DNA from: a virus
Taxonomy: Duplodnaviria; Heunggongvirae; Uroviricota; Caudoviricetes
Virus record (IMG/VR): IMGVR_UViG_3300028031_000001
Span: 1 to 64,000 of that record
Length of the DNA: 64,000 nt
Strand: one strand, 5' to 3'
Of this stretch, positions 27,674 to 54,749 are shown piece by piece (positions within the stretch are counted from its first letter, which is position 1; every line of letters starts with the position of its first letter). Below the pieces are notes generated by a model. That model saw only the letters and a program-made list of their open reading frames with translations, was not told where the DNA came from and made no database searches. A program made the position numbers and the translations under genes.

Positions 27674-28047
27674 TGAGTAAACAAGAAAAACAGAAACTAT
27701 TTGACACCTCTTACTTGCATATCATGCGGCAGGGTGAGCCTAGCATACAAAACAGTCTATGTGTCTATAAAAGCGATTCTGGCTTATCTTGTGCTGCCGC
27801 ACCATTTATAATCAATTATCACCCACAAATGGAGGAAAACGACTTCTGTAACGTAATCAAAGATTTCCCAGAAGATGTAGACCCTATAGCCGTTAATAAT
27901 GCAAATTTTGTAGTACTTTTGCAAAAAGCTCACGACTTTTCTAAGGATATAAATAATTCCCGCTTCTTAGAAAAATATAAAGAAATAATGGCCGGCATAT
28001 CACATAACTACGGCCTGACTATACCGGACGTAGGGCAGGTATTATGA
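27673..28047 (+). CDS. Hypothetical protein
   Basis: 124-aa ORF. Confidence 0.4.
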   Translation: MSKQEKQKLFDTSYLHIMRQGEPSIQNSLCVYKSDSGLSCAAAPFIINYHPQMEENDFCNVIKDFPEDVDPIAVNNANFVVLLQKAHDFSKDINNSRFLEKYKEIMAGISHNYGLTIPDVGQVL

Positions 28048-28235
28048 ATGCATTAGCTAAAATTTTTCAAACCGTAGCAATGATAGGGCTAATATTAACC
28101 TCTATTATATCGATAGTTTTACCATATGACCCCGACCTCCAATCTGAATTGTTATATATTCAGTTAAAACTTTTGGTTATTGGGTATTATAGTATCATGG
28201 CTTTTGTCATCCCAAACCTGAAAATGAAAAAGTAA
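28044..28235 (+). CDS. Small membrane protein
   Basis: 63 aa, hydrophobic. Confidence 0.3.
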   Translation: MNALAKIFQTVAMIGLILTSIISIVLPYDPDLQSELLYIQLKLLVIGYYSIMAFVIPNLKMKK

Positions 28236-28902
28236 TTCATGCTATGCCAGCATTTTCAGGAACTACCAATATATATCAATCCTTAATGTTTTCAATGAGT
28301 TATAAGCATAGCTCCAAAAGAGATAACAGCCCATTCAACTACACCCAACCCACCTATTCTTAAAACACCCCTCCCAAGCAGATAAATACTTAAACCAGCT
28401 TTTATATAAACCCAACTGTATTTATATCTTAATTATCAATGACTTACTATAAACAATCCCACACCGCGTTACACTTTAGACGACGTAGTATCTTAATAAA
28501 GCATAGTAAATCACCTAAAAACAGATATCTATTACTTTTTGGAATACATCAATCTACATACTTTCTTATTGGGAATATATGACCCATTTTACCTTTGATA
28601 TTAGCTCAATTCCACTTTAAAGGTTGTTATTTGTTTTATGTACCTATAAAAATGGTTAAATGGATATGTAGAAGCTTATGTGGGCTCTGTGGCTGTATTT
28701 AAAATGAAAAGGAACCCCGTTACCCAGATAATGACTAAAACGTCTCCACCGGGCTTAAATTCATTGTATTTCTTTTCGGATATAAGAAAGGAAGAGAAAG
28801 CAATTTGGATTTTGAGTTCCATAAATTTTTATAAAAGGGGAGCTTTCTTAATAGAGAAAAAAATGAAGACCTCTGGGGATATATTCAAATATACAGACAT
28901 AA

Positions 28903-28972
28903 TAATATCCTAATATTTAAACATAGTAATATCTTAATATTTGAATATTCGTATATAGCAATATCTTAATAT
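28903..28972. repeat. Three iteron-like copies of AATATC(C/T)TAATATT in a 1.6 kb non-coding region
   Basis: Copies begin near 28905, 28927 and 28958. Each has an internal palindrome AATATT. The flanks are AT-rich. Confidence 0.5.
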
Positions 28973-29788
28973 TCAAATATGGTCACGCAGGAACAGTTCT
29001 TCTTCAGAATCCAAAGCTGCGGGATACTACTTTTGGATGTTATATTTTATTCAAATCCTTTTATACCTTATTGATTGATAGGAAATGTATTAGAACATAG
29101 GTGGTACGCCATGTATAGCTATTTATGGTTTATTTCTATATAGGGGTTAGAGACTCTGTAGTATCCTGTAAGAGGTGTTTTCAAAAGTAATAGCGTGGTA
29201 TAGGTTAGGGTTTAAAGCGTGTCAGAATGGGCTGTATAAGGCGTATATGGTGCGTATATAGATTTTTATAGTATACCGAATAAGGCGAAAAGAAATATTT
29301 TGTGGCTAAAATGGAATTTTTTCACAATTTTAGCAAGCCCTATATGCATTTTATTTACAATACGCAATAATATTCCCCTATTGGCTAATTTCACAGAATA
29401 ATATACCCCCAAAACCCCTTTAAACAGAATATTATGCCTATTTGCGTATTTCTCACCTCAAAACCTTGACTTTCCGGATGTCAATAGTTTCAGATTAAAT
29501 AAATATACGCTTTAATTGTTTTTTTGTGCTAAAATTATAGTAACGTGTTGATTTTGCTGTAGTTTCTTAAATATTAGACAGGTTCGGTGTTTATCTTCGC
29601 CGAATCTGCCAGCGCCAAAGCTATTATAACCTAAAAAAAACATCAAAAACAAGCTATTTATTGAGAAAAAAATCGTTGGGGATTTAATTTGTGTTTTCAA
29701 TGATAATGCGGTCTGTAGAGCTACACATTCTTGTTTCCCTACGGGAAGAGACTTTTTATATTAAAGGGGCGATATGATAGGTAAAAAA

Positions 29789-29808
29789 AATGCCCCGTGA
29801 GGGGCATT
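29789..29808 (-). terminator. Rho-independent terminator for minus-strand gene 29825..30091; the hairpin is flanked by A8 on the + strand
   Basis: AATGCCCC-gtga-GGGGCATT. On the minus strand it is followed by TTTTTTTT. Confidence 0.7.
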
Positions 29809-29824
29809 AGAGAGAGTTTGGCGG

Positions 29825-30091
29825 CTATTGGTCTGCGTAATAATCTTTGTTTAATGCTTTAGCCGCATCAAACGCATAACTCGCAAACGGGAAAGGCATA
29901 TAACCTTTATGCCAGACCCAATTTAATTTTTCGGCCCTGCCCCCATCATTCCCCAAAAGAAAATATACGCGGTATGCTTCGCCACCATTGAAATGGCTTA
30001 ATGCATCAGGTTGAGCTGAATAAGGATAATGATCTGTATCTATACTATGTGCTTGAATGCCGCCAGTTGCTTGAATTTGTGTTGCTTTCAT
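29825..30091 (-). CDS. Hypothetical protein
   Basis: 88-aa ORF flanked by terminators. Confidence 0.45.
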   Translation of the reverse strand: MKATQIQATGGIQAHSIDTDHYPYSAQPDALSHFNGGEAYRVYFLLGNDGGRAEKLNWVWHKGYMPFPFASYAFDAAKALNKDYYADQ

Positions 30092-33082: not shown

Positions 33083-33298
33083 TCATACACCTTCCGCAAT
33101 CGTATTGTCTTTGACCGGGGTGAGGCGTTGGTTCCATAAAATGGCGGCTTGCTTGTTGCTTAAACTCCCCGCTGGCCCATCTGTTTCGCAATTACCGCAG
33201 GAAATATAGTGCAAATGTTTTCCGTTAGTCTGTGGCAGTATTTCAAAATCTAACTCTTTCCTCTCACCACAAAACGGGCAGGGTTTTAGTTCACTCAT
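33083..33298 (-). CDS. Lar-like zinc-ribbon protein (restriction-alleviation family)
   Basis: MSELKPCPFCGERK ... CGNCE matches the Lar family N-terminal signature. Confidence 0.5.
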   Translation of the reverse strand: MSELKPCPFCGERKELDFEILPQTNGKHLHYISCGNCETDGPAGSLSNKQAAILWNQRLTPVKDNTIAEGV

Positions 33299-34284: not shown

Positions 34285-34470
34285 TCATTCTTCTTCCAGA
34301 TAACTTATATACTCTTCCAGAACTTGTATTTCGAAGTCGTTTTCCTGGACATCTCCCATTAAAAATCCCGATTCCGTTTCGTCAGTAATTAAATTGATCT
34401 TATGATAAATTGCACTATTGTGTAGATATAAACATTCTACCCTATTTTTTAATATTCCTATATCGCTCAT
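34285..34470 (-). CDS. Hypothetical acidic protein
   Basis: 61-aa ORF. Confidence 0.3.
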   Translation of the reverse strand: MSDIGILKNRVECLYLHNSAIYHKINLITDETESGFLMGDVQENDFEIQVLEEYISYLEEE

Positions 34471-34964
34471 CTCTTTTCTCCAAGGTTTATAATTTTAATT
34501 CCGTGATCCAAAGCCGCCCTTAGGGCCTGACCCGTACCACCTTTGACTTCTCCTCCGGGTGTCCAGCAGATTACCACGTCAACCGGCGTATCTAAGTTCT
34601 CCCCGAACATGATGTGCATATTACGTCCGTGGAACAGCTTAGCTGCGTCTGAACACCTACCCCACGCGGGATGGTAATCCATTGCCATTCCAAAAGCTTC
34701 ATCCGAGACGTTGTAGTAATAGAGTAGATATGAAAACTCTTTTAGGTGCAAATTGTGTGAAGCCCAAGGTTTAAATATCTCCGCTCGATCAGCGGCACTC
34801 TCAAAAGCGTAGTCTGCTCCATCTGCATGACCTGAACGCAGTATCCAGTTGTCATCTGTTTTTTTGTTAAACCTATGAGCTATTCCGCCCATGAGTCTCA
34901 ACACGTTGTCTGGTGTCTTGCGTGCTCCAATTCCTGCGTAGTATTTATACATATTTTCACTCAT
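34467..34964 (-). CDS. Standalone SLOG-domain (LOG/DprA/DUF2493-like Rossmann) protein
   Basis: N-terminal YAGIGARKTP and C-terminal TPGGEVKGGTGQAL resemble SLOG motifs (GxGxR ... PGGxGTxxE). Confidence 0.5.
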   Translation of the reverse strand: MSENMYKYYAGIGARKTPDNVLRLMGGIAHRFNKKTDDNWILRSGHADGADYAFESAADRAEIFKPWASHNLHLKEFSYLLYYYNVSDEAFGMAMDYHPAWGRCSDAAKLFHGRNMHIMFGENLDTPVDVVICWTPGGEVKGGTGQALRAALDHGIKIINLGEKR

Positions 34965-35275
34965 AATTTATGCGCTCTACCAGCCTTAGAATCTTTGTAT
35001 GTACAAGTTAGCCAAGGAACCCAAGAGAGGTATTTGTTGATCCAATCCGTTACCTTTAGTACATGTACGTAATGCTGATCGTATTCCTTTTGGGTGAGTA
35101 AAGGGAATCCACACAATATACACTTCTTTTTAACCAGATTAATATCTATGGTGAAGGGCAGGCTTTCGATTCCGCATTTATCACAGATTAAGGTTGACTC
35201 AGGCCACACTACTTTCTTTTCATCCATACTACCCCCTAACTCTTCTACCAAGTTCTCTAAGCATGACTCTCGCAC
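34961..35275 (-). CDS. Zinc-ribbon protein
   Basis: CDKCG ... CILCG. Confidence 0.4.
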   Translation of the reverse strand: MRESCLENLVEELGGSMDEKKVVWPESTLICDKCGIESLPFTIDINLVKKKCILCGFPLLTQKEYDQHYVHVLKVTDWINKYLSWVPWLTCTYKDSKAGRAHKL

Positions 35276-35557: not shown

Positions 35558-36100
35558 TCATATTAACAACCTCATTACCCGTCCGACTTCTTCTCGCATA
35601 TCCTGTTCGTCCGGTTGGTTGTCGAAGGCGTGCTCTATATCAGACCCCTGATCAAGGCACACTATCTGGGCTCTGTATCCATCGACCACACTGGTCTTTA
35701 CCATCATCGTAACCGCTAAGTCTGAGTCTGGTGAGCTGTCGTGAAACATACCGGGGTTTCCGTAACCGTAGGTAGTACCGGCTTCGTAAAATGTAGCGCC
35801 AATACGGCTACACAAACATGGGCCGATTAATTCAAGCCTGCTACTCTTACTACCGGGAGTACCTTGTTGCCATAAATCGGCGTTACCGTCATGGTGAGTC
35901 TTTACTGCAAACATTTCATGCCGCAGCGTACCTATTAACACGGTACTGTTGAATGTAAATCTATGGTCATGTATCCGAGCGTTTTGCACTCTGGTAGCTG
36001 GGAAGTCTTTGCTCCATATATGCAAACGCACATCTGGGGACATATAAACTTGTATGAATCCGTTGCCGTGGAAACGTGGAGTTAGTGGCTTATTCATCAT
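35558..36100 (-). CDS. Hypothetical protein, possibly a cupin / metal-dependent oxygenase-like fold
   Basis: His-rich segments (HGNGF, IHDHRF, HHDGN). Confidence 0.35.
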   Translation of the reverse strand: MMNKPLTPRFHGNGFIQVYMSPDVRLHIWSKDFPATRVQNARIHDHRFTFNSTVLIGTLRHEMFAVKTHHDGNADLWQQGTPGSKSSRLELIGPCLCSRIGATFYEAGTTYGYGNPGMFHDSSPDSDLAVTMMVKTSVVDGYRAQIVCLDQGSDIEHAFDNQPDEQDMREEVGRVMRLLI

Positions 36101-38567: not shown

Positions 38568-38879
38568 TTATATGTCATACCCTCTTAAATCGGAAGTAAA
38601 GTAGTTACTAGCTATTGTACGCAACTCATAACTAACTTCATGAGGTTTAAGTTCAACTATCTCGCCTAGCAAATTTATAAAAACTATATGTTGGTTTGCT
38701 TTATCTATCCAATAACATTGTTGTTTTTGTTTTGGCTTGCTGTAGCCATTATACACTGGAGTGCCTGATTTTGTACGCCTAAGATACTTGTGTTTATATT
38801 CGTCTTCAGACAAATTATTCAAAATATCCTTAAGGGTCTTTCGATCTTTGTATTCCTTAAGCCACATTCGTTTTTTCAC
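38568..38879 (-). CDS. Hypothetical protein
   Basis: 103-aa ORF coupled to the downstream NAMPT-like gene. Confidence 0.4.
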   Translation of the reverse strand: MKKRMWLKEYKDRKTLKDILNNLSEDEYKHKYLRRTKSGTPVYNGYSKPKQKQQCYWIDKANQHIVFINLLGEIVELKPHEVSYELRTIASNYFTSDLRGYDI

Positions 38880-40327
38880 GACCCATTTAGACGTTCTCTG
38901 ATTTCGGACAGCGTGGTTATATTTTTTATTTCACTATCTAGGAAAACAGTCTGTAAAAGACCCCCCTGTTCTTCTTCCGAGGTACATTGATCTTTGATAG
39001 ACCCGTCATGCTCGACGCGAAGCAAACCCTTTGCGGATCGCTTAAGTCCATTGTCGGTCTTTGGGTCTTTGAAGATTTCGCGATGCTCACCATCAACAAT
39101 ACCATAAGTCGCTTTGACCGCAAATCCGTGCGTGTCCCGAGTCACCATTTGGTACGTAAAGCTGCCTACTCCAAATACAATATTGCTAGATGCAAAACCA
39201 GCGGCTTCTAAATTACTTAAAATCTCATCAGCACGGTCGTAAGTGATGCTGTCTCCATATATCAAACCGATATGTGGATTAAGAACTTTGTAACCCTGTT
39301 CATTGTCAGTTCCACCAAATGTATCCCAAAGACATTGAATAGTTCCCTGAGCAATAGCGGAATCATCCGATTCGTAGTCGCCACAAATTATTTTAACCGG
39401 GTCTCCCGAGTCTGGCCGAATTACCACCTTTCCATCACGAGCTAATATTTTATCCTTAAGTTGCGGTAAGAATTCTGTAATAACTTTCCAGTAGTCCCAT
39501 GAGTCAGATACGATAGATACAATCCCTTTGGGATATACATCCTCTATCAATTCTCTAAAGGTTTCAATCTCGTTATCTTTTCCTCTTAGACACATAACGG
39601 AATGCTCTGTAGCGGGAACTGACATACCTATGATTTCGCTATCGCTGTCGGCTCCGTAGTAATTCTCTAGGAAATCAATTGCGGGAATGGTATCCGTACC
39701 TAAGAAACTTAACAAATGCCCGGCACCGCTCATAGACGCGGCCTCAACACCCGGTAAACCCCTCATAGAGAAGTCGTGTGCCTGAAAGTCTACACCGTCG
39801 GTTGTTCCGGTTGTTTGTATTGCATATTTATCAAGTAGTTGGCGATATTTATCCGCAGTACTTGCGGAAGTCATGGGTAACCACAAACTTGTTGATAATA
39901 AAGTCTCTAAGTAATTAACCAACCAAGAAAAGTCCGCGTGGGTGTTGGTTATAGTAAGCATTGGAACTCTATGGTCGCATCGAGTGCCTTCCGGAAGAGC
40001 TTTGATTAGTAGGGGAAGATATCCCAAATCCCACAAAGCCGCGACATGGCTGACGCCTACAGAGTCTTCACCAAGTGCGTTATCAAGGCGGCGTTTGTAT
40101 CGGCTAACAACTTTAGCTTTATTAACGCTAAAAAAATCTTCGTCAAACTGTTTCATTAAGTATTCTAAAATAAAATACTGAATGCCAAATACGACCGTGT
40201 AATCCATTCCGGAATAAGGCCCGCCGCGAGGCGTTAAATTTGAATAAATTTTAGTTGTCTTAGCCGGATACTGCTGAATATGTCCAACCTTATAAAAATC
40301 GGTTAAATGTATAGGGTGTAATTTCAT
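38876..40327 (-). CDS. Nicotinamide phosphoribosyltransferase-like protein (NadV/NAMPT family; an alternative reading is Namat of NARP1)
   Basis: 483 aa. NAMPT-family features run across the whole length (the Tyr-rich N-terminus FYKVGH, GTDT, SDSWDYW, GVGSF). Confidence 0.75.
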   Translation of the reverse strand: MKLHPIHLTDFYKVGHIQQYPAKTTKIYSNLTPRGGPYSGMDYTVVFGIQYFILEYLMKQFDEDFFSVNKAKVVSRYKRRLDNALGEDSVGVSHVAALWDLGYLPLLIKALPEGTRCDHRVPMLTITNTHADFSWLVNYLETLLSTSLWLPMTSASTADKYRQLLDKYAIQTTGTTDGVDFQAHDFSMRGLPGVEAASMSGAGHLLSFLGTDTIPAIDFLENYYGADSDSEIIGMSVPATEHSVMCLRGKDNEIETFRELIEDVYPKGIVSIVSDSWDYWKVITEFLPQLKDKILARDGKVVIRPDSGDPVKIICGDYESDDSAIAQGTIQCLWDTFGGTDNEQGYKVLNPHIGLIYGDSITYDRADEILSNLEAAGFASSNIVFGVGSFTYQMVTRDTHGFAVKATYGIVDGEHREIFKDPKTDNGLKRSAKGLLRVEHDGSIKDQCTSEEEQGGLLQTVFLDSEIKNITTLSEIRERLNGS

Positions 40328-41085
40328 AATACTCTTCCTTTTGGTGTGTAAATTTCGTCTATCAATCCATCAAAAACTTTAAAACCTTTTGTGAAAAAAC
40401 CATGCGATACACAAAGTATTATTTTTTTCGCACCATGCTTGCGCAACTTCTTTGCTATCTCTATGAAGGTTCTTCCTCCATCACAGATATCATCCACTAT
40501 AACGCAGGTTTTGTCAAGAACTTTTTCATAATCATGTACTATGGTTTTTAAAATTTTGCCCGTTGCCAACTGCCTAACTTTGGAGCAGTGGACTAGCCCG
40601 CCAATATTTTCAGAATGTACTTCTGCAAGTTTCTCCGACTTGTGAATGGCTCCAGCGTCTGGAGCAACAATAATCCACCCCTTTTCTAGACACGATAATG
40701 CTCCGAAAAAATTTGCGAACTGCGGAATTGATATGCAGTTATTAATTAATGCTGAAGTAACTGGCGAATGGGGGTCGAGAATTTGTACCCTTGAAAATTC
40801 GAGATTATTTACCAGATCAGTAAAAACTTTGATGGACAAAGACTCGCCCTTAGTCATTACGCGGTCTTGCCTACTAAAGGGCACATAATGCATTATCAAC
40901 AAACCAAGACTCAAATTGCAGCGTTTGATGGCGTCACAAACCAATAGAAGGTCTATAATACTGTCAGAACCATCGAACTCAAATCTAACATTAATAATTT
41001 CGCTCGTAATATTACTAACTTTTACATTCCTCTCTCCACATGGAAAGGAAAAAAATCTTACGTCCGCACCTGTTAATCTTATCAT
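40324..41085 (-). CDS. Ribose-phosphate pyrophosphokinase-like protein (Prs family; an alternative reading is ADP-ribose pyrophosphate synthetase Adps of NARP1)
   Basis: PRPP-binding motif VIVDDICDGGRTF. At 253 aa it is shorter than canonical Prs of about 315 aa. The gene is translationally coupled to the NAMPT-like gene. Confidence 0.65.
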   Translation of the reverse strand: MIRLTGADVRFFSFPCGERNVKVSNITSEIINVRFEFDGSDSIIDLLLVCDAIKRCNLSLGLLIMHYVPFSRQDRVMTKGESLSIKVFTDLVNNLEFSRVQILDPHSPVTSALINNCISIPQFANFFGALSCLEKGWIIVAPDAGAIHKSEKLAEVHSENIGGLVHCSKVRQLATGKILKTIVHDYEKVLDKTCVIVDDICDGGRTFIEIAKKLRKHGAKKIILCVSHGFFTKGFKVFDGLIDEIYTPKGRVL

Positions 41086-45108: not shown

Positions 45109-45627
45109 CTATCCTAATTCCATCAACTTCTTAATTTGTTCTAATTTAAAATTTACATTAGAAGTGTGTTGGCAAAATTGTACGCCAATACCTCCGCGAT
45201 TTGTCCATTCATCTAATACGGACTGCCTGTCGTCTATAAGGATCGCTGCGGGCTGGGCAAAAGCTCCCTTACCTACCGTATTCATACAGAATGCCATAGG
45301 TATATCTCGAATACCTTGAGCTGCTAACCAATCAATCTTTTGTATGGCAATCTCGTTGTGGTATCTGCCGCCACCAGTGCTGGTCATAATACACGGATTA
45401 TAGCCCAATTCTTTGACGTCGAAAAATAATTGTATACCAGTTTTAACCGGCTCAAGGGTAGAAAAAAAACGGTTAGAGTGTACGTCCCTATTCCAATAAG
45501 CTTCTGCGATGTCTGGATCGTTTATAAGCTGTTCCACATTACTTAGACCGCTGACGCCATACCATTCCAAAAATGCTTTGTCAAAGTTCGCCAAAACTCC
45601 ATCCATATCAAAATATAAGTGCTTCAT
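45109..45627 (-). CDS. HAD-family 5'(3')-deoxyribonucleotidase
   Basis: N-terminal MKHLYFDMDGVLANFDKAF (DxDGVL motif I of the NT5C family). Confidence 0.75.
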   Translation of the reverse strand: MKHLYFDMDGVLANFDKAFLEWYGVSGLSNVEQLINDPDIAEAYWNRDVHSNRFFSTLEPVKTGIQLFFDVKELGYNPCIMTSTGGGRYHNEIAIQKIDWLAAQGIRDIPMAFCMNTVGKGAFAQPAAILIDDRQSVLDEWTNRGGIGVQFCQHTSNVNFKLEQIKKLMELG

Positions 45628-46953: not shown

Positions 46954-47250
46954 CTATTTGTTGTCAAGAGCCTTGTATTTCATGTTAATTCTGTAGATCG
47001 CCTGTGATTTGCACCAATCCATCCACGGTGCTCTACAATCCCCTTGGATGTGTATACCATTCTTCTGAAAAATACAACCGCCCGGACATTTTTGCCTTGC
47101 TATCTTTTGAAGTTCCATATCTTTAAATTTATCATCGTAACCTTGGAACATATTATTTCTCCAAACTGTGTTATATAACGAACAACTAATTGCCCAATTG
47201 TTCATTATATAAGACAATTGGCAGGCCCGCCTCGAATCGAACGAGGTCAT
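46954..47250 (-). CDS. Cys-rich hypothetical protein
   Basis: 98-aa ORF (CPGGCIFQKNGIHIQGDC). Confidence 0.4.
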   Translation of the reverse strand: MTSFDSRRACQLSYIMNNWAISCSLYNTVWRNNMFQGYDDKFKDMELQKIARQKCPGGCIFQKNGIHIQGDCRAPWMDWCKSQAIYRINMKYKALDNK

Positions 47251-47293
47251 GGAAGATTCAAAATCTCCTGTGTTCCCACTTCACCACGAACCT
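47219..47293 (-). tRNA. tRNA-Gln(TTG)
   Basis: T-arm CCTCG-TTCGATT-CGAGG, anticodon loop TTTTGAA, acceptor AGGTTCG/CGGGCCT and encoded CCA. Confidence 0.6.
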
Positions 47294-47299
47294 ATTGAT

Positions 47300-47386
47300 T
47301 GGAGGAGAGAGTCAGAATTGAACTGAAAACTGTGAAATTCGCACTGGTTAGCAACCGTACCCTATAACCATATAGGATCACTCTCC
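47300..47386 (-). tRNA. tRNA-like gene, possibly type II, anticodon undetermined
   Basis: T-loop TTCAATT, acceptor GGAGAGT/TCTCTCC and a D-arm, but no clean anticodon stem. Confidence 0.3.
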
Positions 47387-47395
47387 AAAATTAGT

Positions 47396-47470
47396 TGGTG
47401 GGTCTACCGAGCAACGATCTCGGACAGTCTGATTAAAAGTCAGATATGCTGCCAATTACATCATAGACCC
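47396..47470 (-). tRNA. tRNA-Lys(TTT)
   Basis: Full cloverleaf: acceptor GGGTCTA/TAGACCC, anticodon stem TCTGA/TCAGA with loop CTTTTAA, encoded CCA. Confidence 0.7.
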
Positions 47471-47712
47471 AAAGTTTGATTGCAACTTTGCTGGTCTGGC
47501 TTAATGATGCGGATCAATTCTCTTGACCCTGTTGTTCCTGTATTCATTTTAGTTCCTTAGTAGTGAGGGTTTTGACCATCACGTAATCTTTTATCTGCCG
47601 CAGCTTCAAAGCCTTGTTCGAAGATTCGTCCTATTTTTTTGATAGACGTTTCAATAAGAATCAATAATTTTAGAGTTTCTGCTGTTGTCATTTTCATTTC
47701 AATTCCTTAATT

Positions 47713-47788
47713 TGGTAGGCCCGGAGAGACTCGAACTCTCATAAATCTGGTTAGAAGCCAGATGCCTGTCCAGTTAGACTACGAGCCT
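47713..47788 (-). tRNA. tRNA-Arg(TCT)
   Basis: Full cloverleaf: T-arm GAGAG-TTCGAGT-CTCTC, anticodon loop CTTCTAA, encoded CCA. Confidence 0.7.
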
Positions 47789-48008
47789 ATAAATCTTCAA
47801 CCTCTTCTAAAGGTTGAAATGTTCCATGTTTAGGGTCTGAATCATAATGGTATTCTAAATCTTCAAAAACTTCCCCAAACTTGCTTCGATCACCCAAAAA
47901 ACCCTCTCCATTCCAGGAACCATAGTTGAAATTTCTTCCGATTCCACGGTACAATTGTCCGAATTTCATATCTTCTAGTTTTAAATAATTATCTTTTAAG
48001 TAATTCAT
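47787..48008 (-). CDS. Hypothetical small protein within the tRNA array
   Basis: 73-aa ORF between tRNA genes. Confidence 0.35.
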   Translation of the reverse strand: MNYLKDNYLKLEDMKFGQLYRGIGRNFNYGSWNGEGFLGDRSKFGEVFEDLEYHYDSDPKHGTFQPLEEVEDL

Positions 48009-48025
48009 AATAATATTCTCGTTAT

Positions 48026-48097
48026 TGGCTCACCCACTTGGAGTCGAACCAAGAAAAATTTCCTTCGTAGGGAAATGGCATTCCTATCGCTGGGTGA
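48026..48097 (-). tRNA. tRNA-Arg(ACG)
   Basis: T-arm CTTGG-TTCGACT-CCAAG, anticodon stem TTTCC/GGAAA with loop CTACGAA, encoded CCA. Confidence 0.65.
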
Positions 48098-48103
48098 ATT
48101 GTT

Positions 48104-48179
48104 TGGTACGGGTAGAAGGTTATGCTCCTCCGGTAAGCGCTTATAAGACGCCCGTTTTCACTAATTAAACTATACCCGC
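48104..48179 (-). tRNA. tRNA-Ile(TAT)-like gene with a non-canonical T-loop AGCATAA
   Basis: Acceptor GCGGGTA/TACCCGT, D-stem GTTT/AAAC, anticodon loop CTTATAA, encoded CCA. The T-loop lacks a TTC. Confidence 0.35.
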
Positions 48180-48542
48180 ACAATGCGGGTTATCTCTGTG
48201 TCCATCACTTAATCTCCTGATTGGGCCAGTGCTCGTTAAACAATCTTGATGGTTGGCTCGTGCCAATCCATTTCTTATAAATCAGCTTGTCGCCGAAATA
48301 AACGAAAAGATTGTTATCTATTTTGACTGAGCGCATACAATCTCCTAATAAGTCGGGGCGGAAGAATCGAACTTCCTTGCGCACTGCGACTGGCTGCTCC
48401 AGCAAACCCCCATTGTTTGGTGCGGGGCTGAGTAGTTGCACCTCAGATTTCTAATACTCTGTCACAGGTTATGATCCTATTTGGAGACGCAAAAGTTATC
48501 ACGCTGTACAAACGCTTCCGTCTTGCTTACACCCGCGTTACT

Positions 48543-48617
48543 TGGTAGACCTACGAGGTTATGCTCCCCGGTTGCTCGCGTATCAGACGAGTGCCTTCAC
48601 TATTAGACGATAGGTCA
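48543..48617 (-). tRNA. tRNA-Ile(GAT)-like gene with the same unusual T-loop AGCATAA
   Basis: Anticodon stem CTCGT/GCGAG with loop CTGATAC, T-stem CGGGG/CCTCG and a CCA-like 3' end. Confidence 0.4.
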
Positions 48618-48691
48618 ATAAAATATTCTATCATTTAAGACATCTTAGAAGCGTTAAAGTTTCGTAATATATCACAAATGACACCTAAATT

Positions 48692-48761
48692 TGGGGTGAC
48701 GTAGAGAATCGAACTCTTTAGTTCCGGATCACAACCGGGCCTTCTCCCTGAGAAACGCCAC
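48692..48761 (-). tRNA. tRNA-His(GTG)
   Basis: Acceptor GTGGCGT/ACGTCAC with a C discriminator. Anticodon loop TTGTGAT. T-loop TTCGATT. Encoded CCA. Confidence 0.5.
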
Positions 48762-48999
48762 ATCTTTAAACTTAATACATACTTAAGTCGTCTTTAAGGG
48801 TCTAATATGGCCTTAAAGCAACATTATAAAATTGAACCATATTGGTTTGAAATAAGCAAATTCAACCGTATTGGTTTATTTCGTGATATTCAACTAATAT
48901 GGTTGAATTGGTCAAGGCGGCGTGTTCTGCCCACGCTCCTCCGAGTTCCAAACCCGGCAGCTTATCTGAACTTGCCCTCGCCAAGAAGGTTTTAAAATT

Positions 49000-49085
49000 T
49001 GGTACTCCGAGAAAGATTTGAACTTTCAATCCCTTACGGGCGCTGGTTTCTAAAACCAGAGTGTATACCGTTCCACCACCGGAGC
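49000..49085 (-). tRNA. tRNA-Leu(TAG), type II
   Basis: T-arm GAAAG-TTCAAAT-CTTTC, anticodon stem CTGGT/ACCAG with loop TTTAGAA, long variable arm, encoded CCA. Confidence 0.7.
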
Positions 49086-49143
49086 ATTGTTCTTAGACTT
49101 GACACTTCGACTCTAATTGTCTCATGTGAGAGGTCTGTAAAAT

Positions 49144-49229
49144 TGGTACATCCGGAGAGACTCGAACTCTCAATCCATCTCAGGCGTTGGATTTTAAGTC
49201 CAATGTGTATCCCATTCCACCACAGATGC
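49144..49229 (-). tRNA. tRNA-Leu(TAA), type II
   Basis: T-arm GAGAG-TTCGAGT-CTCTC, anticodon stem TTGGA/TCCAA with loop CTTAAAA, long variable arm, encoded CCA. Confidence 0.7.
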
Positions 49230-49317
49230 ATAAATAATGCAGAACGTCATTACCGGCATCAGCCTCGACCTTAAAGGTTACGTGACCTCATATCCAAAGA
49301 TATGTCTGTTGGGTCAA

Positions 49318-49396
49318 TTTGGTCGCCAAGGTGGGAGTCGAACCCACGTCTGTTCTGCTTATGAGGCAGAGCTGGTGCCACTCCAGTCACTCGGCA
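49318..49396 (-). tRNA. tRNA-Met/Ile2(CAT)
   Basis: T-arm GTGGG-TTCGACT-CCCAC, anticodon stem TCTGC/GCAGA with loop CTCATAA, encoded CCA. The 5' boundary is uncertain by about 1 nt. Confidence 0.55.
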
Positions 49397-49467
49397 TTAA
49401 TTTTTACTTAAAACTTTCATTATCCGCAAGTTTTGCGGAAAATACGGCTATTAATCTCCGCAATTTT

Positions 49468-49553
49468 TGGTGTGCGTGGTAAGGAATCAAACCTACCAAG
49501 CCCAGAGGCGACGGGGTTACAATCCGCCAGCTTTCTCAGTTGCATACACGCAC
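49468..49553 (-). tRNA. Putative tRNA-Tyr(GTA), type II
   Basis: Perfect acceptor GTGCGTG/CACGCAC, loop TTGTAAC in an imperfect stem, long variable arm, encoded CCA. The T-arm is non-canonical. Confidence 0.4.
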
Positions 49554-49567
49554 ATTGTCAAAAAAAA

Positions 49568-49641
49568 TGGTATTCCCTGCGGGTACTGACCCCGCGCCGT
49601 CTGGTTGAAAGCCAGATATTCTACCATTAAACTAAGGGAAT
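49568..49641 (-). tRNA. tRNA-Glu(TTC)
   Basis: Perfect acceptor ATTCCCT/AGGGAAT, anticodon stem TCTGG/CCAGA with loop CTTTCAA, T-stem GCGGG/CCCGC, encoded CCA. Confidence 0.6.
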
Positions 49642-49676
49642 AATTCCCTAAGCCTCTTGTCCTGCGTATGTATACA

Positions 49677-50084
49677 TTATTTTCTCCCAAATTCTCTTCT
49701 ATTTCTCGAAACTCTTCGAGCGTTTGCAGATTTACAAAGTTCACAACTACACTGGTAGCTTCTAGACTTATATCTGCGCATTGTTCCATGTTCTGGAACT
49801 CCAAATTCATTCTTATAATCTTGTTTTGTTTTTTTTATGTGACACGGTTTACACCTTATGGTACATTTTTCCAATTCTTTATTTCGTCTAGGAATTGCCC
49901 AAGACCATATTCTGTGTGACACTTTATCTTTTGGGTCTTTATGGTCAATTTCTAAAGATAGCATCGATCCGCAATCTGTACAACCATCTTGTCCGTTTTC
50001 TTCAAACCAATCGCTTCTTCTTTTTGCGATCCATTCTCTAGCATATTTTCTTCTCGCTTCCAAATTTTTTATTGGCATAATCAT
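49677..50084 (-). CDS. HNH endonuclease embedded in the tRNA array
   Basis: HNH motif (LEIDHKDPKDK...H) plus zinc ligands (CTDCGS ... CKPCH ... CSCELC). Confidence 0.7.
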   Translation of the reverse strand: MIMPIKNLEARRKYAREWIAKRRSDWFEENGQDGCTDCGSMLSLEIDHKDPKDKVSHRIWSWAIPRRNKELEKCTIRCKPCHIKKTKQDYKNEFGVPEHGTMRRYKSRSYQCSCELCKSANARRVSRNRREFGRK

Positions 50085-50141
50085 AATCCTATTATTTAGG
50101 GTTCAATTATACATAAAAGCACAATTATGTCAACATAAATT

Positions 50142-50216
50142 TGGAGCCCTTACGACGATTTGAACGCCGGTCTTCTGATTACAAAACAGTGGCTCTACCA
50201 ATTGAGCTATAAAGGC
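50142..50216 (-). tRNA. tRNA-Thr(TGT)-like gene
   Basis: Canonical D-arm TAGCTCAATTGGTAGAGC, T-arm CGGCG-TTCAAAT-CGTCG and encoded CCA. The anticodon stem has A:A and T:T mismatches around loop TTTGTAA, or a 9-nt loop. Confidence 0.45.
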
Positions 50217-50319
50217 ATATCTTAAATTTGGTCGTGAGACTTTCACTCACTCTCGCTTTCCAGTACGCGCATATAGGTAGCGTCTTCGCGTTTCAGATTC
50301 TGATGAGAATCTAAAGCTT

Positions 50320-50391
50320 TGGTGGATCGACAGAGTAACGATCTCTGCCTTCCGCATTGCAAGTGCAGAGTCTGTCCCATACAGCCAACCC
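50320..50391 (-). tRNA. tRNA-Ala(TGC)
   Basis: T-stem CAGAG/CTCTG, anticodon stem CTGCA/TGCGG with loop CTTGCAA, encoded CCA. Confidence 0.55.
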
Positions 50392-50533
50392 AATAACCTA
50401 ATTATTGCACAACACAATAACCTAAAATTTGTACGATCATAAGTTTACTGACATTAACCGTGCTTGGTCTGGCAAAGGGATTTTGCGGTTCCCAATGGTT
50501 TCCGGCGCACTCGAAAGTACGACTCCTAGTATT

Positions 50534-50610
50534 TGGACAGTAGAGTCGGAATTGAACCGACGTAAAGCGAGTTTGCAATCCGCTGCCTAAGCCATTCGAG
50601 CCATCTACTG
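50534..50610 (-). tRNA. tRNA-Cys(GCA)
   Basis: Perfect acceptor CAGTAGA/TCTACTG, T-arm GTCGG-TTCAATT-CCGAC, anticodon loop TTGCAAA, encoded CCA. Confidence 0.6.
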
Positions 50611-50611
50611 T

Positions 50612-50686
50612 TGGCGCACTAAGATGGGATCGAACCACCGACGCGTGAGGCTTCAACCCACCGCTCTACCACTGAGCTACAAGTGC
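50612..50686 (-). tRNA. tRNA-Phe(GAA)
   Basis: D-arm TAGCTCAGTGGTAGAGC, anticodon stem GTGGG/CTCAC with loop TTGAAGC, T-loop TTCGATC, encoded CCA. Confidence 0.65.
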
Positions 50687-50951
50687 TTAAAATTAGTGAT
50701 CGGTCTAGGTCTCCATTTATTCCCCAACTTGGGAGACTCCACGCGACCCGAAGGTTTCTGCTTTCGCTTCATCAGGCGTAAAATGTCGGGCTAGATGTCT
50801 ACAATGTCAACCAATCTGGTAGACCAACGCTCTTTCTGCCTTTCGGCAATTCTTTAATTCTTACCCCGCCTTTAATTAAGTTGTCTTTACAACTCCCCTT
50901 TATTGGTATGCCGGGGACAGTGGATTTTGCAGGCGGTCACTGTTGCGCTCT

Positions 50952-51025
50952 TGGTGCTCGGTGTTGAAATCGAATCAACGTCTCCTACTTGTAAGGAAGG
51001 TGCTAATCCCCTCAGCTAACCGAGC
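50952..51025 (-). tRNA. tRNA-Val(TAC)
   Basis: Perfect acceptor GCTCGGT/ACCGAGC, T-arm GTTGA-TTCGATT-TCAAC, anticodon loop CTTACAA, encoded CCA. Confidence 0.6.
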
Positions 51026-51321
51026 TAATTTGTTTCCTTTTCAGATTTTTATATTCTCTATTTCTTTTGCACCACGGACAATCTCCGTGTGAACGGCAAG
51101 TTCTATCTATAGACTTGCTGCCTGTGTAAGATTTTCTATTCGTTCGTGACATAAATATCCTAATATGGTGGGACAGACGCCGCTACAGCATCACCGATTA
51201 CGTTAATTATTCATAACCTACACATTTTTCGCTTTAGTAATTACTCTAAACCGACGTGTGTCGAAGGAGATTGTCGCATGACTCTCATCCTACCGCTCTA
51301 CTTTGAGCTACATCCCATGTT

Positions 51322-51396
51322 TGGTGCGTCGTCAGAGTCTCGAACTCTGCTTTCAAGGTTGGAAACCTTGCACATCGCCTACAATGTTTACAACGC
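51322..51396 (-). tRNA. tRNA-Gly(TCC)
   Basis: Acceptor GCGTTGT/ACGACGC, anticodon stem CAAGG/CCTTG with loop TTTCCAA, T-arm CAGAG-TTCGAGA-CTCTG, encoded CCA. Confidence 0.7.
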
Positions 51397-51429
51397 AATA
51401 ATCGTTTCATTTTTTGCAACGATTTAAAT

Positions 51430-51511
51430 TGGTGGAGCTGGAGCGATTCGAACGCTCGTCCGAGAGTTTCCCAATGGGCTTTACCTCTCGTCGAAACCAA
51501 AACACAGCCCC
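51430..51511 (-). tRNA. tRNA-like gene (82 nt), anticodon undetermined
   Basis: Perfect T-arm GAGCG-TTCGAAT-CGCTC, acceptor GGGGCTG/CAGCTCC and encoded CCA. The internal arm is atypical, with a 6-bp stem enclosing 18 nt. Confidence 0.35.
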
Positions 51512-51698
51512 TTATTTAAATTGTGTCGTTGATGGGGGATCGTCCCCATGCCTCCCCTACTCTATTTCAAGGCGAACTACATTATTCCACAACAACAAAA
51601 CTTCTCTAGCACATTTGATTATATCGCTACGAGCGAAACCATCTCTGGTAGTCTGCGAACGATACCTAAGTACCCTAGTACGTATCCGCTTGTTAATT

Positions 51699-51773
51699 TG
51701 GCGATCACGGTGAGAATCGAACTCACGACACGAGGATAGACAATCCACTGCTTAACCATTCAGCTTCGCAACC
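51699..51773 (-). tRNA. tRNA-Asp(GTC)-like gene
   Basis: T-arm GTGAG-TTCGATT-CTCAC, a G:U-rich acceptor, anticodon loop TTGTCTA in a stem with one T:T mismatch, encoded CCA. Confidence 0.45.
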
Positions 51774-51851
51774 TTAATTCTTTGACCACCTTTTGTTATT
51801 GCTTCTGCATTTACCTTAGCAGACCGCTCACGGGGCCGATGTCCTAGCCAG

Positions 51852-52214
51852 TTAAATAACCCTCATAATTTCTGCACGGGCTTTTATCAATTTTGAAATA
51901 TCTTGCATCGCGCCTCTGAAACTTAAAGTTTCTCCAGACGCATGGTCTGTAACTATATTTCGCTCCGCGTGGTACGTTCTAATTCTGACACTTCCAGCTC
52001 TAAATCGTTCCGTATCTTCGTGTAAACTTTTCAATACTCTCGATTTGCATACGGCAAGGGCGTTCTTTTTGTTTGTTTCGCGAGACTTGCTTCCCGTGCC
52101 TTGCGCTTTAATACCAGTAGATAAGTGTGTTACTCTACAACAATTTTGATGCTTGTTGCGATGCTGTCCACCCTTACCCGTTCCAGAAAACCATTCGATT
52201 TTATACTCATCCAT
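51852..52214 (-). CDS. RF-1 domain peptidyl-tRNA hydrolase (ArfB/YaeJ-like ribosome-rescue factor)
   Basis: GGQ motif in context: SGTGKGGQHRNKHQN...THL..TG. The protein is short (120 aa) with a basic C-terminal tail, like ArfB. Confidence 0.65.
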   Translation of the reverse strand: MDEYKIEWFSGTGKGGQHRNKHQNCCRVTHLSTGIKAQGTGSKSRETNKKNALAVCKSRVLKSLHEDTERFRAGSVRIRTYHAERNIVTDHASGETLSFRGAMQDISKLIKARAEIMRVI

Positions 52215-52636
52215 AATGGTAGTCCCTAGCCAGTTTCTTTTGTTTGTACCACTTCAGCCATTTACCAGTATTTGATTTTGACTTTTGAAGTTTTATACTT
52301 TTGTGACGCATTTTAACCTTAAATTAGTGGTTGTATTTTTGTGTCCGTCAGATGATTACCCTTACTATATTTGGGACTCTCCGATAGTTTTGTATACAAC
52401 CGTAGGGTTTAGCTCCCTCTGTAACGGTGAACTAAGGTATTCCCGTAGCTATGTTCCGATACAACTCTTTAATGCCAGTAGGTATATTTACGCTACCCGA
52501 GGTTCTTAACATTTGCTCTGCACAACCCACTGCAACATCAAAACTTTTATATTTCCCTAGCCCGCGTCTTACCGTCTGCGAAGGCGTAGGGCATACGATA
52601 CGTAGTCTAATGACCAATGAGACGCATCTTTCTTTT

Positions 52637-52713
52637 TGGCTGGCAATCAAGGGCTTGAACCTTGCGCGGTCGGATTAACAGTCCGTCGCCCACACCCGGT
52701 GGGCCTATTGCCA
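52637..52713 (-). tRNA. tRNA-Asn(GTT)
   Basis: Perfect acceptor TGGCAAT/ATTGCCA, T-arm CAAGG-TTCAAGC-CCTTG, anticodon loop CTGTTAA, encoded CCA. Confidence 0.55.
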
Positions 52714-52975: not shown

Positions 52976-54673
52976 TTATTTTGACTTTTTCGAAAATCCA
53001 AGCGCTAAATAATCAAATTTGGCTACGATGTTCTCACAGAACCCCTCAGTCTCACTTATAATATCAAGGCGTTCTTTATAATGCCGGTATAAATGGTTGT
53101 TGTTTCTGTCTTCAAAATCAACAACGAAAGCAACGTTAGGGCCGAACTTTTTTTCTCTCAATCCGCGACCTACCCTCTGGCGCAAATTAACTTCAGCCTT
53201 TCCTCCGCCAGCTAGTATTATCATACCTACGCTAGGAACGTCCACACCAACGTCTAAAATAGTTGATCCTATTAAAACATCAATCCGCCCACTTTTCAAC
53301 TGGTTTAACGCAAACTCTCTTTGTTCTTGGCTATCCTTTCCAGATATAAATACAGACTTTAGACCATTCATAACCATCATCCGTTTTAGAAGCTCACCAT
53401 GTTTTGTATGATTAACCAAAACCATCGTGGTTAATCCATAACTTTTCGCCTCTTTGGCCTCGACAATAACGGAATTGTTTCGCTTCTTGTTTTCGGTGAT
53501 ACCCATCTTATAGGCTTTCGTCCACGAGGCTGATCTGGTTAGGCCCGGAACTTTCTCAACCTTGATATATTTAAAATATGGCTTAGCTAAAATTCCAGAG
53601 TTAATCAAAAGTTTTTCAGAAACCTTGATTCCGATTGGGCCTGTGCAAGCCATTAGCCTCATATTTGCTTCTTGGTTATCTTTCATAAACGGAGTTGCTG
53701 TCAAAGCTAGCCTATACCAAGCATTGCTACATGCGTTAGATATATTATAATACCCATTTCCAGAAACTTCATGAGCCTCCTCCAAACAAAAAAATCCTAT
53801 AGTTTTTAAGAACTTAATAGTCTCTTTTCTTTTTATTTTAGATAATTCCACGGTTTTTATTATTTTATCTCGAACCTCGTCATTGTTTATAGGGTTTGCA
53901 GCAATAACAGATTTCCTTACCTCGGCTATTTTCTGTTTTAAAAGCTTAGGAACTTTGCTTAAGGTGTTGGTTTCGGTGGGTAAATTGTTTGCGCGCATAA
54001 CTTCGATAATTTTTTTCTCAAGATTTTTATAATATTTATCCATAACTTTTTTGGTTTCTGTCTCAAGCGTTTTTTCTTCTAACCGAGCAGCCAAGGTTCC
54101 AACAGTAGCAAAATTTGCCCCTTTAGAATTTGGAGCCCACTTTCCATCTCCAAGATATCCAGCCCATTCGCCCATAGTTTCTTCAAAATTATTTGCCATT
54201 TGATACATAAGGCTTTTTCTAGATGTTAAAAATAAAGTTGGTAAGCCAATTCTAGAATAACAGAGTTTAAAAACTCGACTTTTCCCACCACCGGTTGCTA
54301 TTTGGGCAATCATACCTCGAAGCGATAAAACTCTGCCTACAACTTCTGGTTGAAATTTGTACCTATGATCGTCTGGAAATTCATCAACCTTGGGGGTTTT
54401 GGGGCCGGTAGGTTCAGGGGCATCACGACTGTGGGTGATGACGTTATAGCCACCCATCTCCAATTTTTTTTTAACCATCCGAACAAATCCGGCTGGGAAA
54501 CTATTGGTCGCCATACTAAAATGTGAATTATATCCATCCCAATTGCCAGCATTCATATGTTCAAAACCAGCTACTTTAAAAGATAAAATTTCCGATATAA
54601 GATATCGCAAGTCGTTATCCGGGTTATGGAGCTTCGCTTTAACTGGATTAAATAATATAACCGCTTGCAGCAA
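52976..54673 (-). CDS. Superfamily-2 DNA helicase (DEAD/DEAH-box; UvsW/RecG-like)
   Basis: Walker A ATGGGKS. DEAH-like motif II FFCLEEAHEV. Motif III LALTATPF. Motif VI QRVGRGLR. Confidence 0.75.
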   Translation of the reverse strand: MLQAVILFNPVKAKLHNPDNDLRYLISEILSFKVAGFEHMNAGNWDGYNSHFSMATNSFPAGFVRMVKKKLEMGGYNVITHSRDAPEPTGPKTPKVDEFPDDHRYKFQPEVVGRVLSLRGMIAQIATGGGKSRVFKLCYSRIGLPTLFLTSRKSLMYQMANNFEETMGEWAGYLGDGKWAPNSKGANFATVGTLAARLEEKTLETETKKVMDKYYKNLEKKIIEVMRANNLPTETNTLSKVPKLLKQKIAEVRKSVIAANPINNDEVRDKIIKTVELSKIKRKETIKFLKTIGFFCLEEAHEVSGNGYYNISNACSNAWYRLALTATPFMKDNQEANMRLMACTGPIGIKVSEKLLINSGILAKPYFKYIKVEKVPGLTRSASWTKAYKMGITENKKRNNSVIVEAKEAKSYGLTTMVLVNHTKHGELLKRMMVMNGLKSVFISGKDSQEQREFALNQLKSGRIDVLIGSTILDVGVDVPSVGMIILAGGGKAEVNLRQRVGRGLREKKFGPNVAFVVDFEDRNNNHLYRHYKERLDIISETEGFCENIVAKFDYLALGFSKKSK

Positions 54674-54749
54674 AATTTGCCTCGTTGTTGATTATTTCGA
54701 CAAATGTAAGTATAATACCCTACATTAGTAAATTTTTTGAGGAAATAAA

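Follow-up and report, generated by a model that had tools for sequence, protein, structure and literature searches.

Comparative genomics has linked viral SLOG domains to Macro, NADAR, Nudix and DUF4326 domains, and has predicted a role for them in sensing cADPR-like signals, or in degrading these through attack on the ribosyl-adenine bond, in a paper that called the domains experimentally uncharacterised (Iyer, Burroughs, Anantharaman and Aravind, Viruses; Iyer et al. 2022, PMC9503650). Since 2022, experiments have assigned functions to some of these linked domains. In T4, AdfN (NADAR) and AdfM (Macro) strip DNA of ADP-ribose and so overcome DarTG1 and DarTG2. A Macro protein associated with NARP1 dephosphorylates soluble ADPR-1''P, and an action on soluble ADPR phosphates has been predicted or demonstrated for both DUF4326 and the Poa1p-like Macro of Pseudomonas phage PAK_P4 (PMC9503650 among the sources).

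SLOG domains are also found in proteins that bind DNA and in bacterial immunity. In HpDprA the arginines R52, R143 and R170, equivalent to R139, R234 and R261 of ShosA, are needed for ssDNA binding, and their mutation abolishes it (PMC12961424). ShosA itself (PDB 8ZVA) is the DprA-like antitoxin of ShosTA, a host protein of more than 300 aa that has a SAM domain, forms a dimer, binds RecA and adjoins a PRTase toxin. The SLOG domain of ThsA (type I Thoeris, PDB 7UXS) binds an ADP-ribose-derived ligand, and is fused to a SIR2/effector in a protein encoded with the TIR protein ThsB. Among phage SLOGs, the only one with an experimental phenotype that our literature search found is ORF83 of PhiDruSM1, the deletion of which sensitises the phage to nuclease-type Avs3 (Avs type III) and lowers plating, the same effect as is seen when the DNA ligase is deleted. 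For the phage family phrog_768, no experimental paper on any member was found in the searchable literature.

Here we analyse a phrog_768 member encoded by a virus of the Caudoviricetes. The window, i.e., the whole stretch of DNA analysed, comprises 64,000 nucleotides (positions 1 to 64,000 of IMG/VR record IMGVR_UViG_3300028031_000001). We compare its sequence, predicted structure and genomic context, and those of its relatives, with the systems described above.

The SLOG gene and its surroundings

The gene lies on the minus strand at 34467..34964 and encodes a protein of 165 aa, a standalone SLOG domain of the phrog_768 family, the N-terminus of which reads MSENMYKYYAGIGARKTP; M5, at 34952 on the same strand, is a candidate alternative start. 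Overlaps of the ATGA type at both ends embed the gene in a tightly packed array. Upstream, the TGA of a 104-aa ORF with two CxxC pairs (34961..35275, minus strand) overlaps the ATG of the SLOG gene, which suggests that the two are translationally coupled, and downstream the ATG of a 61-aa ORF (34285..34470, minus strand) overlaps its TGA. Both flanking ORFs are given as context only: PHROG and Pfam searches with the 104-aa protein were empty and no homologue of it adjoins a SLOG gene across 80 viral loci, and the 61-aa protein has neither a PHROG nor a Pfam match.

The array is a dense series of co-directional small ORFs that spans about 54.7 kb to 29.8 kb of the minus strand and ends there at a strong terminator-like hairpin. 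Several ORFs near the SLOG gene contain CxxC pairs, and one neighbour in the array is a Lar-like restriction-alleviation protein. A scan for promoters and terminators was uninformative, with 29 promoter-like sites against 35.8 expected. A scan with PHROG and Pfam placed a Nampt-like gene at 38876-40327 and a Prs-like gene, which overlaps it, at 40324-41085; they form a NARP1-type pair 3.9 kb upstream of the SLOG gene. The sequence-only reading of this DNA had described a lone SLOG-domain ORF in a minus-strand block rich in small zinc-ribbon proteins, 4 kb from an NAD+ module, and this description is correct in all its elements: the ORF is real, several of its neighbours carry CxxC pairs, and the NAD+ module is the Nampt/Prs pair.

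Among all ORFs of at least 40 aa in the 64 kb window there was no NADAR, DUF4326, Macro, phrog_2072, 2OG oxygenase, Toprim or YAcAr, and the scanned neighbours of the SLOG gene gave no match to TIR or SIR2. None of 13 neighbouring window proteins recurred in the 80 viral loci, save for one match to a deoxyribonucleotidase-like ORF. Nothing closely related to the phage at the DNA level turned up in the phage collection searched: megablast with the 33-37 kb region gave no match, and similarity to other phages is weak, residing in terminase and portal and shared with phages of about 84-120 kb.

Family, fold and conserved pocket

The protein matches phrog_768, named "DprA-like DNA recombination-mediator protein", with E=3.8e-48, its residues 5-164 aligning to positions 2-169 of the 191 in the profile. 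Searches of Pfam, NCBIfam, PADLOC and PDB sequences with the single protein were all empty, and Pfam DprA (PF02481) returned nothing for it at E<=10. Among 57 homologues, 53 have weak Pfam DprA matches, the best at 4.6e-6, which stay below the gathering score (e.g., 19.7 bits against a cut-off of 29.6 for homologue P0137), and two match PF10686 weakly. A PDB search with the family profile (A1) gave no better than E=0.15, to HpDprA.

Relatives were detected by tblastn in 1061 of 50,697 phage records, i.e., about 2% of sequenced phages, all of them below 60% identity and 982 with a query coverage of at least 80%. Their phages include Pakpunavirus, T4-like Straboviridae, phi92/rV5-like, N4-like, Ackermannviridae and others, and their annotations range from hypothetical to DprA-like and 'YspA SLOG family'. 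When 1.84 billion cluster representatives (50% identity) were searched with a profile, 6,503 relatives were recovered, 3,010 of them at E<=1e-30, and relatives of an ICE-type homologue used as the query (P0085) occur on only 30 of 72,556 plasmids. An identical protein is on record on a metagenomic contig of 108,641 bp, and the nearest non-identical relative shares 53-56% identity. The window protein is thus one more diverged member of a known, abundant phage family.

AlphaFold2, run with the 57-sequence alignment, predicted a single domain (pLDDT 94.1, pTM 0.89) with the three-layer alpha/beta Rossmannoid architecture and five-stranded sheet of the SLOG superfamily; all 165 aa fall inside this one fold, in agreement with the earlier claim of a SLOG domain and no other. 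In a structure search with the model, DprA came out on top, followed by the molybdenum-cofactor carrier protein (12.5), TM1055 and LOG enzymes (10-12) and YpsA (11.6). With Foldseek, the 12 best PDB matches were all ShosA or DprA. Against viral models, the best matches were phage proteins of the same family (TM about 0.8), with YAcAr/DUF2493-type SLOGs of phages and giant viruses ranking below them. Judged on the predicted model, the nearest known relatives of the protein are therefore DNA-binding members of the superfamily and not the Thoeris sensor. The earlier reading had drawn an analogy with ThsA and proposed comparison with the ThsA, LOG and DprA folds; the comparison upholds the SLOG fold and places LOG lower than DprA/ShosA, while the ThsA analogy fails, ThsA lying outside the Foldseek top 50.

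Five motifs stand out in the family alignment, all encoded on the minus strand. For comparison, the cores of DprA, Smf and ShosA were rebuilt from PDB alignments and added to the family alignment, with the offset of the HpDprA numbering deduced from the construct. Motif 1 (residues 9-18, YAGIGARKTP; 34911..34940) covers strand 1 and a glycine-rich loop, with G11, G13 and P18 invariant and Y9, I12, R15 and T17 at least 90% conserved; by hmmsearch and MAFFT it corresponds to IGTRRPTP of HpDprA, which brings R15 onto the arginine of the DprA GxR motif (HpDprA R52). Motif 2 (residues 42-51, LRSGHADGAD; 34812..34841) forms strand 2 and the following loop and is the equivalent of SGxAxGxD in DprA, with L42, G45, A47 and D51 invariant and R43, S44, G49 and A50 at least 90% conserved. 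Motif 3 (residues 98-101, HPAW; 34662..34673) is a loop that joins helices 3 and 4 and is peculiar to the family; it has invariant H98 and at least 90% conserved P99 and W101, and is matched by a gap or by unrelated residues in the aligned DprA sequences. Motif 4, an invariant RN pair in helix 4 (residues 114-115; 34620..34625), falls on RNR of DprA, ShosA and Smf, so that R114 aligns with HpDprA R143 and ShosA R234. Motif 5 (residues 133-149, CWTPGGEVKGGTGQALR; 34518..34568) runs from strand 4 through a glycine-rich loop into helix 5; T135, G142 and G143 are invariant and C133, W134, G138, T144, A147 and R149 at least 90% conserved, and its alignment with SGSMSSAR of HpDprA matches R149 to HpDprA R170 and ShosA R261.

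The residues that make up the SLOG pocket (G11/G13/R15, H98/W101, R114/N115 and G142/G143/T144) are all invariant or at least 90% conserved. They include the motifs quoted in the sequence-only reading, and the pocket corresponds to the ligand site that PMC9503650 gives as canonical for SLOG domains. All three ssDNA-binding arginines of DprA are present in the window protein, as R15, R114 and R149, and each is invariant or at least 90% conserved in the family. Since R15 and R114 occupy phosphate-binding positions that are conserved across SLOG families, only R149 is specific to DprA, being common only to the DprA lineage among the sequences compared. From their conservation, the invariant D51, H98, N115 and T135 look more like parts of an enzyme or of a site for a specific small ligand than of a generic DNA binder. 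The isoelectric point is uninformative as a proxy for DNA binding, with a family median of 7.7, a broad spread and a value of 6.7 for the window protein.

ADP-ribose partners of the relatives

Among the best 150 family representatives, 54 are multi-domain proteins, and their Pfam fusion partners comprise DUF4326 (13), NADAR (10, plus one of the T4 gp30.3 type), Macro (3), YAcAr (3), DUF7831 (3) and MazG (1). None of these 54 carries a recombinase, SSB, DprA SAM or wHTH/DML1 domain according to Pfam.

The neighbours of the SLOG gene were surveyed in 80 IMG/VR viral loci by unbiased clustering, followed by Pfam and iterative searches. Recurrent partners were DUF4326 (11 of the 80 loci; in L036 and L038 it is fused in frame to SLOG), NADAR (6 loci), a Poa1p-like Macro (3 loci) and phrog_2072 (13 loci), the last of which is Macro-like (hhalign against a Macro alignment, 85% probability, E=6e-6). 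At least one partner lies no more than 1.5 kb from the SLOG gene in 18 of the 80 loci, and all 33 partner genes are on the strand of the SLOG gene. Partners are concentrated near the gene: their density reaches 9.6 per 100 kb inside the first 1.5 kb and drops to 0.22 per 100 kb at a distance of 6-10 kb. Neither recombinase nor nucleotide-biosynthesis genes were found as recurrent neighbours across the 80 loci.

A conserved link between the SLOG gene and an NAD module was considered and rejected: within 10 kb of the SLOG gene, Nampt is found in 2 of the 80 viral loci and Prs in one. NARP1 has been reported in at least 4% of phages. These frequencies are no higher than that background, and therefore the proximity of the NAD module in the window is not a feature of the family. 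The connection to NAD proposed from the window thus holds in a different form, through the fusions and neighbours that tie the family as a whole to ADP-ribose chemistry, and not through the distance to the NAD module.

Individual phages differ in gene order. In PAK_P4, Prs and Nampt are followed by the Poa1p-like Macro and then by two small ORFs and SLOG, which is the recently described NARP1-AP arrangement; in Jiaodavirus the SLOG gene comes immediately after an RNA ligase; and in further phages it sits amid anonymous small genes. In bacterial chromosomes, 59 ICE-like loci, which represent one subclade of the family only, hold DUF4326 (44), a Toprim/DUF7146 primase-like protein (51), YAcAr (43), 2OG-Fe(II) oxygenase (27) and NADAR (25). 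Here SLOG and its partners form shuffled operons, with SSB, relaxase and integrases close by. Many of the supporting loci, viral and bacterial, come from a few lineages (N4-like phages and one ICE clade) and are thus not statistically independent, but the fusions and gene orders are diverse enough to speak for a genuine functional link.

Candidate functions and comparison with known systems

A counter-defence accessory role, exerted on nucleic-acid-linked or soluble ADP-ribose derivatives, is plausible for this protein. The window itself does not distinguish between these readings because the SLOG gene stands alone there, and the weighing is done on the family. We rank a role directed at ssDNA first, ahead of one in soluble signalling, and tentatively propose that the protein binds a nucleotide moiety on single-stranded nucleic acid and acts beside ADP-ribose-removing enzymes. 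In this reading the family is a sister lineage of the Rossmann-like core of DprA and ShosA that retains a complete SLOG ligand pocket and, in it, the three arginines with which DprA and ShosA hold ssDNA, supplemented by the family-specific His-Pro-x-Trp loop. Its ligand may be a nucleotide moiety on single-stranded nucleic acid, plausibly ssDNA that is ADP-ribosylated or prone to ADP-ribosylation. The protein would serve as an early-expressed accessory factor in counter-defence or repair, working in the pathway of NADAR, Macro and DUF4326 alongside or instead of the enzymes that remove ADP-ribose, and in the window phage it would act alone.

The nucleic-acid role is favoured because of the similarity to DprA and ShosA, the arginine triad, and the partners and neighbours with DNA or RNA as their target (NADAR, Macro/AdfM, AlkB-like oxygenase, primase, SSB and RNA ligase). 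Several observations count against it. PF02481 is missed, the SAM and C-terminal domains are lacking, and no partner is encoded in the 64 kb window; the pI of the family is not consistently basic; two of the three arginines, R15 and R114, belong to SLOGs at large; the invariant D51, H98, N115 and T135 speak against a generic DNA binder; and soluble ADPR phosphates are the predicted or demonstrated substrates of the commonest partner, DUF4326, and of the Poa1p-like Macro in PAK_P4.

A more specific form of the ssDNA-directed reading is that phrog_768 proteins are 'lesion readers' on ssDNA and not enzymes acting on soluble signals. A DprA-derived pocket would recognise bases that carry ADP-ribose or another modification on single-stranded DNA of phages or conjugative elements, and the protein would then shield the DNA from DarT-type ADP-ribosyltransferases or hand the lesion over to NADAR, Macro, DUF4326 or AlkB-like enzymes. 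We regard this elaboration as speculative and rather unlikely as it stands. If it were true, the standalone copy would represent a novel type of factor directed against DarT or against DNA modification, carried by about 2% of sequenced phages and also found in the leading regions of ICEs.

The strongest rival, though a doubtful one, is that the protein captures soluble signals or toxins derived from ADP-ribose (cADPR isomers, ADPR-1''P, ADPr>P) as a sponge, or cleaves them as an N-glycosidase, and so blunts Thoeris-like or NAD-depleting immunity. This is in essence the sponge or hydrolase hypothesis of the sequence-only reading, which is already in print for viral SLOGs in general, where it is an explicit prediction (PMC9503650). 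LOG hydrolases and the ThsA sensor are SLOG precedents for it and are among the fold matches, and the polar pocket lined by D51, H98, N115 and T135 suits a small ligand or catalysis. The genomic context agrees with it too, through the family fusions to Macro, NADAR, DUF4326 and MazG, the position of SLOG shortly after the NARP1-AP genes (Prs-Nampt-Poa1p-like Macro) in PAK_P4, and the NARP1-type pair upstream in the window.

It is unlikely, in our view, that the protein is a minimal DprA unconnected with ADP-ribose, one that binds ssDNA and mediates recombination by loading either host RecA or a recombinase of the phage in support of recombination-dependent replication or repair. The top structural similarity is to DprA, the arginine triad is conserved, and 53 of 57 homologues have weak Pfam DprA matches; furthermore, SSB and primase genes occur in the ICE contexts, and DprA/Smf has been suggested as an extra ssDNA-binding protein in jumbo phages (Iyer et al. 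2021). However, the fusions of the family are to ADPr-processing domains, none of the 54 multi-domain members being joined to a recombinase, SSB, SAM or wHTH domain, and no recombinase recurs as a neighbour in the 80 viral loci. The protein, at 165 aa, is also some 40 residues shorter than the DprA core, has the HPAW loop that DprA lacks and stays below the Pfam DprA threshold.

A LOG-like phosphoribohydrolase, or another enzyme of the nucleotide pool serving phage nucleotide metabolism or DNA modification, is highly improbable: the LOG catalytic motif is not conserved, LOG ranks below DprA in both structure searches, and nucleotide-biosynthesis genes do not recur in the 80 loci. Least credible of all is an antitoxin mimic, a stable phage copy of ShosA that would neutralise ShosT-type PRTase toxins upon host transcription shut-off, since ShosA depends on a SAM domain, on dimerisation and on the binding of RecA whereas the window protein is a single SLOG domain with only 16-18% identity to it, and since the fusion partners of the family are unrelated to PRTases and the family is spread through phages well beyond what a response to one uncommon system would need.

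The window copy adds little in itself beyond another diverged member. The interest lies in the family, which is abundant (it occurs in ICEs as well as in 1061 of 50,697 phage genomes, and its clusters at 50% identity number in the thousands) and strongly conserved, and for which the database name, 'DprA-like recombination mediator', conflicts with the comparative-genomics prediction of ADP-ribose-signal processing. Establishing whether the function is directed at ssDNA or at a small molecule would put right the annotation of thousands of genes in phages, and could supply a further component of the DarT/NAD+ arms race in which phages and bacteria are engaged.

Set beside the described systems, the protein departs from each in a different way. 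The catalytic motif of LOG enzymes is PGGxGTxxE, with a conserved Glu. Compared with the LOG phosphoribohydrolases (5WQ3, 9US2 and 1WEK), the window protein has KGGTGQALR, without an acidic residue; position 146 is Q, M or T in the family, and A147 and R149 are conserved. With the ThsA SLOG it has the superfamily fold and an equivalent ligand pocket in common, but it consists of a single domain, matches no PADLOC model and has closer structural neighbours than ThsA.

PhiDruSM1 ORF83 and gp80 of Escherichia phage Seurat are likewise small, standalone and annotated 'DprA/Smf', and have the SG.A.G.D, RN and GG.GT motifs in common with the window protein. The ORF83 residues R89, N90, T112 and D114 fit Seurat gp80 (130 aa, YAcAr-type), to which ORF83 is probably equivalent on this sequence match. 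The two belong to a different SLOG family (YAcAr/DUF2493-type), and EVADES lists LOG as the best PDB match of ORF83. Identity of the window protein with the anti-Avs3 ORF83 was rejected, the A1 profile giving E=0.16 against the Seurat ORFs and hhalign a probability of 11% over 33 columns. By analogy, the anti-Avs3 phenotype may serve as a precedent from a different standalone phage SLOG.

ShosA shares 16-18% identity with the window protein, which has a single domain and no SAM domain. The Rossmann-like domain of DprA/Smf (PDB 4LJK/4LJR, 3MAJ and 3UQZ) shares 17-20% identity, yet the window protein is about 40 residues shorter than the DprA core and has neither the SAM domain nor the C-terminal DML1/wHTH domain. 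The family adds to the DprA plan the invariant HPAW loop and a CWTPGG insertion, does not reach the PF02481 threshold, and is fused to ADPr-processing domains and not to recombination proteins. The closest agreement is with phrog_768 and the viral SLOGs of PMC9503650: the window protein is, as they are, standalone, phage-encoded and located in an accessory-gene region, and Macro, NADAR and DUF4326 accompany its relatives, as fusions or as neighbouring genes, just as that paper has it.

A putative mini-Macro family beside the SLOG gene

In N4-like phages the SLOG gene is adjoined by phrog_2072, a family of about 130 aa and of unknown function which carries the pattern 'FVFGSN..G.HGAGAA...IGCGLAG'. 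Members are found in two of the loci compared with the window, at L038 1598-1996 and, as gp47 of Ruegeria phage V12, at L003 3612-4001, and in 12 more viral loci. A Pfam search returned no match for the family, and hhalign aligned it with Poa1p-like Macro proteins at 85% probability. Phrog_2072 is probably a mini-Macro family that has so far gone unannotated.

SLOG genes in named phages and in ICE-like regions

In Pseudomonas phage PAK_P4, the DprA-like CDS (132 aa; L005 4181-4579, whole region 4001-4579) probably has its deposited start codon placed too far downstream, because the tblastn match to the window's SLOG protein begins at 4001, about 180 nt upstream of the annotated start. Gp80 of Escherichia phage Seurat (L002 4156-4548) is annotated as 'GTP-binding domain', yet it is of the YAcAr/DUF2493 SLOG type, and its R89, N90, T112 and D114 match the published residues of PhiDruSM1 ORF83, an anti-Avs3 protein. 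In Jiaodavirus, represented by Klebsiella phage vB_VIPKPNUMC01 (L170 2985-4540), the phrog_768 gene lies within the head-gene region, and its start is the last base of the RNA ligase gene (phrog_548); a machine-learning annotator labels it 'virion structural protein'.

Among bacteria, ICE-like regions in many marine MAGs (L087 8001-12586; L088 8001-12547; L089-L168) hold an operon in which SLOG, NADAR, DUF4326, 2OG-Fe(II) oxygenase, DUF7146/Toprim and YAcAr genes occur in shuffled order, sometimes in several copies per genome. SSB, relaxase and integrase genes lie nearby, and the operon looks like a leading-region module for ssDNA protection or repair.

The minus-strand block and its NAD module

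Coding strand and GC skew switch together from plus to minus at ~28000-30000 and back at ~54000-55000, marking off the structural modules from the minus-strand block of accessory, tRNA and replication genes. Fifteen clustered tRNA genes (47219-52713, minus strand), including tRNA-Ile(tat), two Arg and two Leu, lie upstream of the accessory genes. On the same strand, the SLOG gene's transcription block includes a nucleotide-pool gene, a 172-aa ORF matching 5'-3' deoxyribonucleotidases (45109-45627; phrog_2643, E=9e-29), and one of the block's several CxxC mini-proteins is a 71-aa zinc-ribbon protein matching Lar restriction alleviation (33083-33298, minus strand; PF14354, E=3.4e-12; phrog_599). 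A gap of 0.6 kb separates the SLOG gene from an upstream 180-aa ORF (35558-36100, minus strand), which matches only phrog_4784, of unknown function, and was not picked up by a 2OG profile built from the ICE loci. This ORF contains an HxD-like motif, 'IHDHRF', which recalls cupin or 2OG-oxygenase metal sites.

The Prs-like (40324-41085) and Nampt-like (38876-40327) genes, both on the minus strand, overlap by 4 bp. A scan of their neighbours found no NMNAT-like gene, and no Macro phosphatase, as in the NARP1-AP form, was seen with the pair in the window. This arrangement fits the Adps+Namat pair of NARP1, rather than ordinary NAD salvage.
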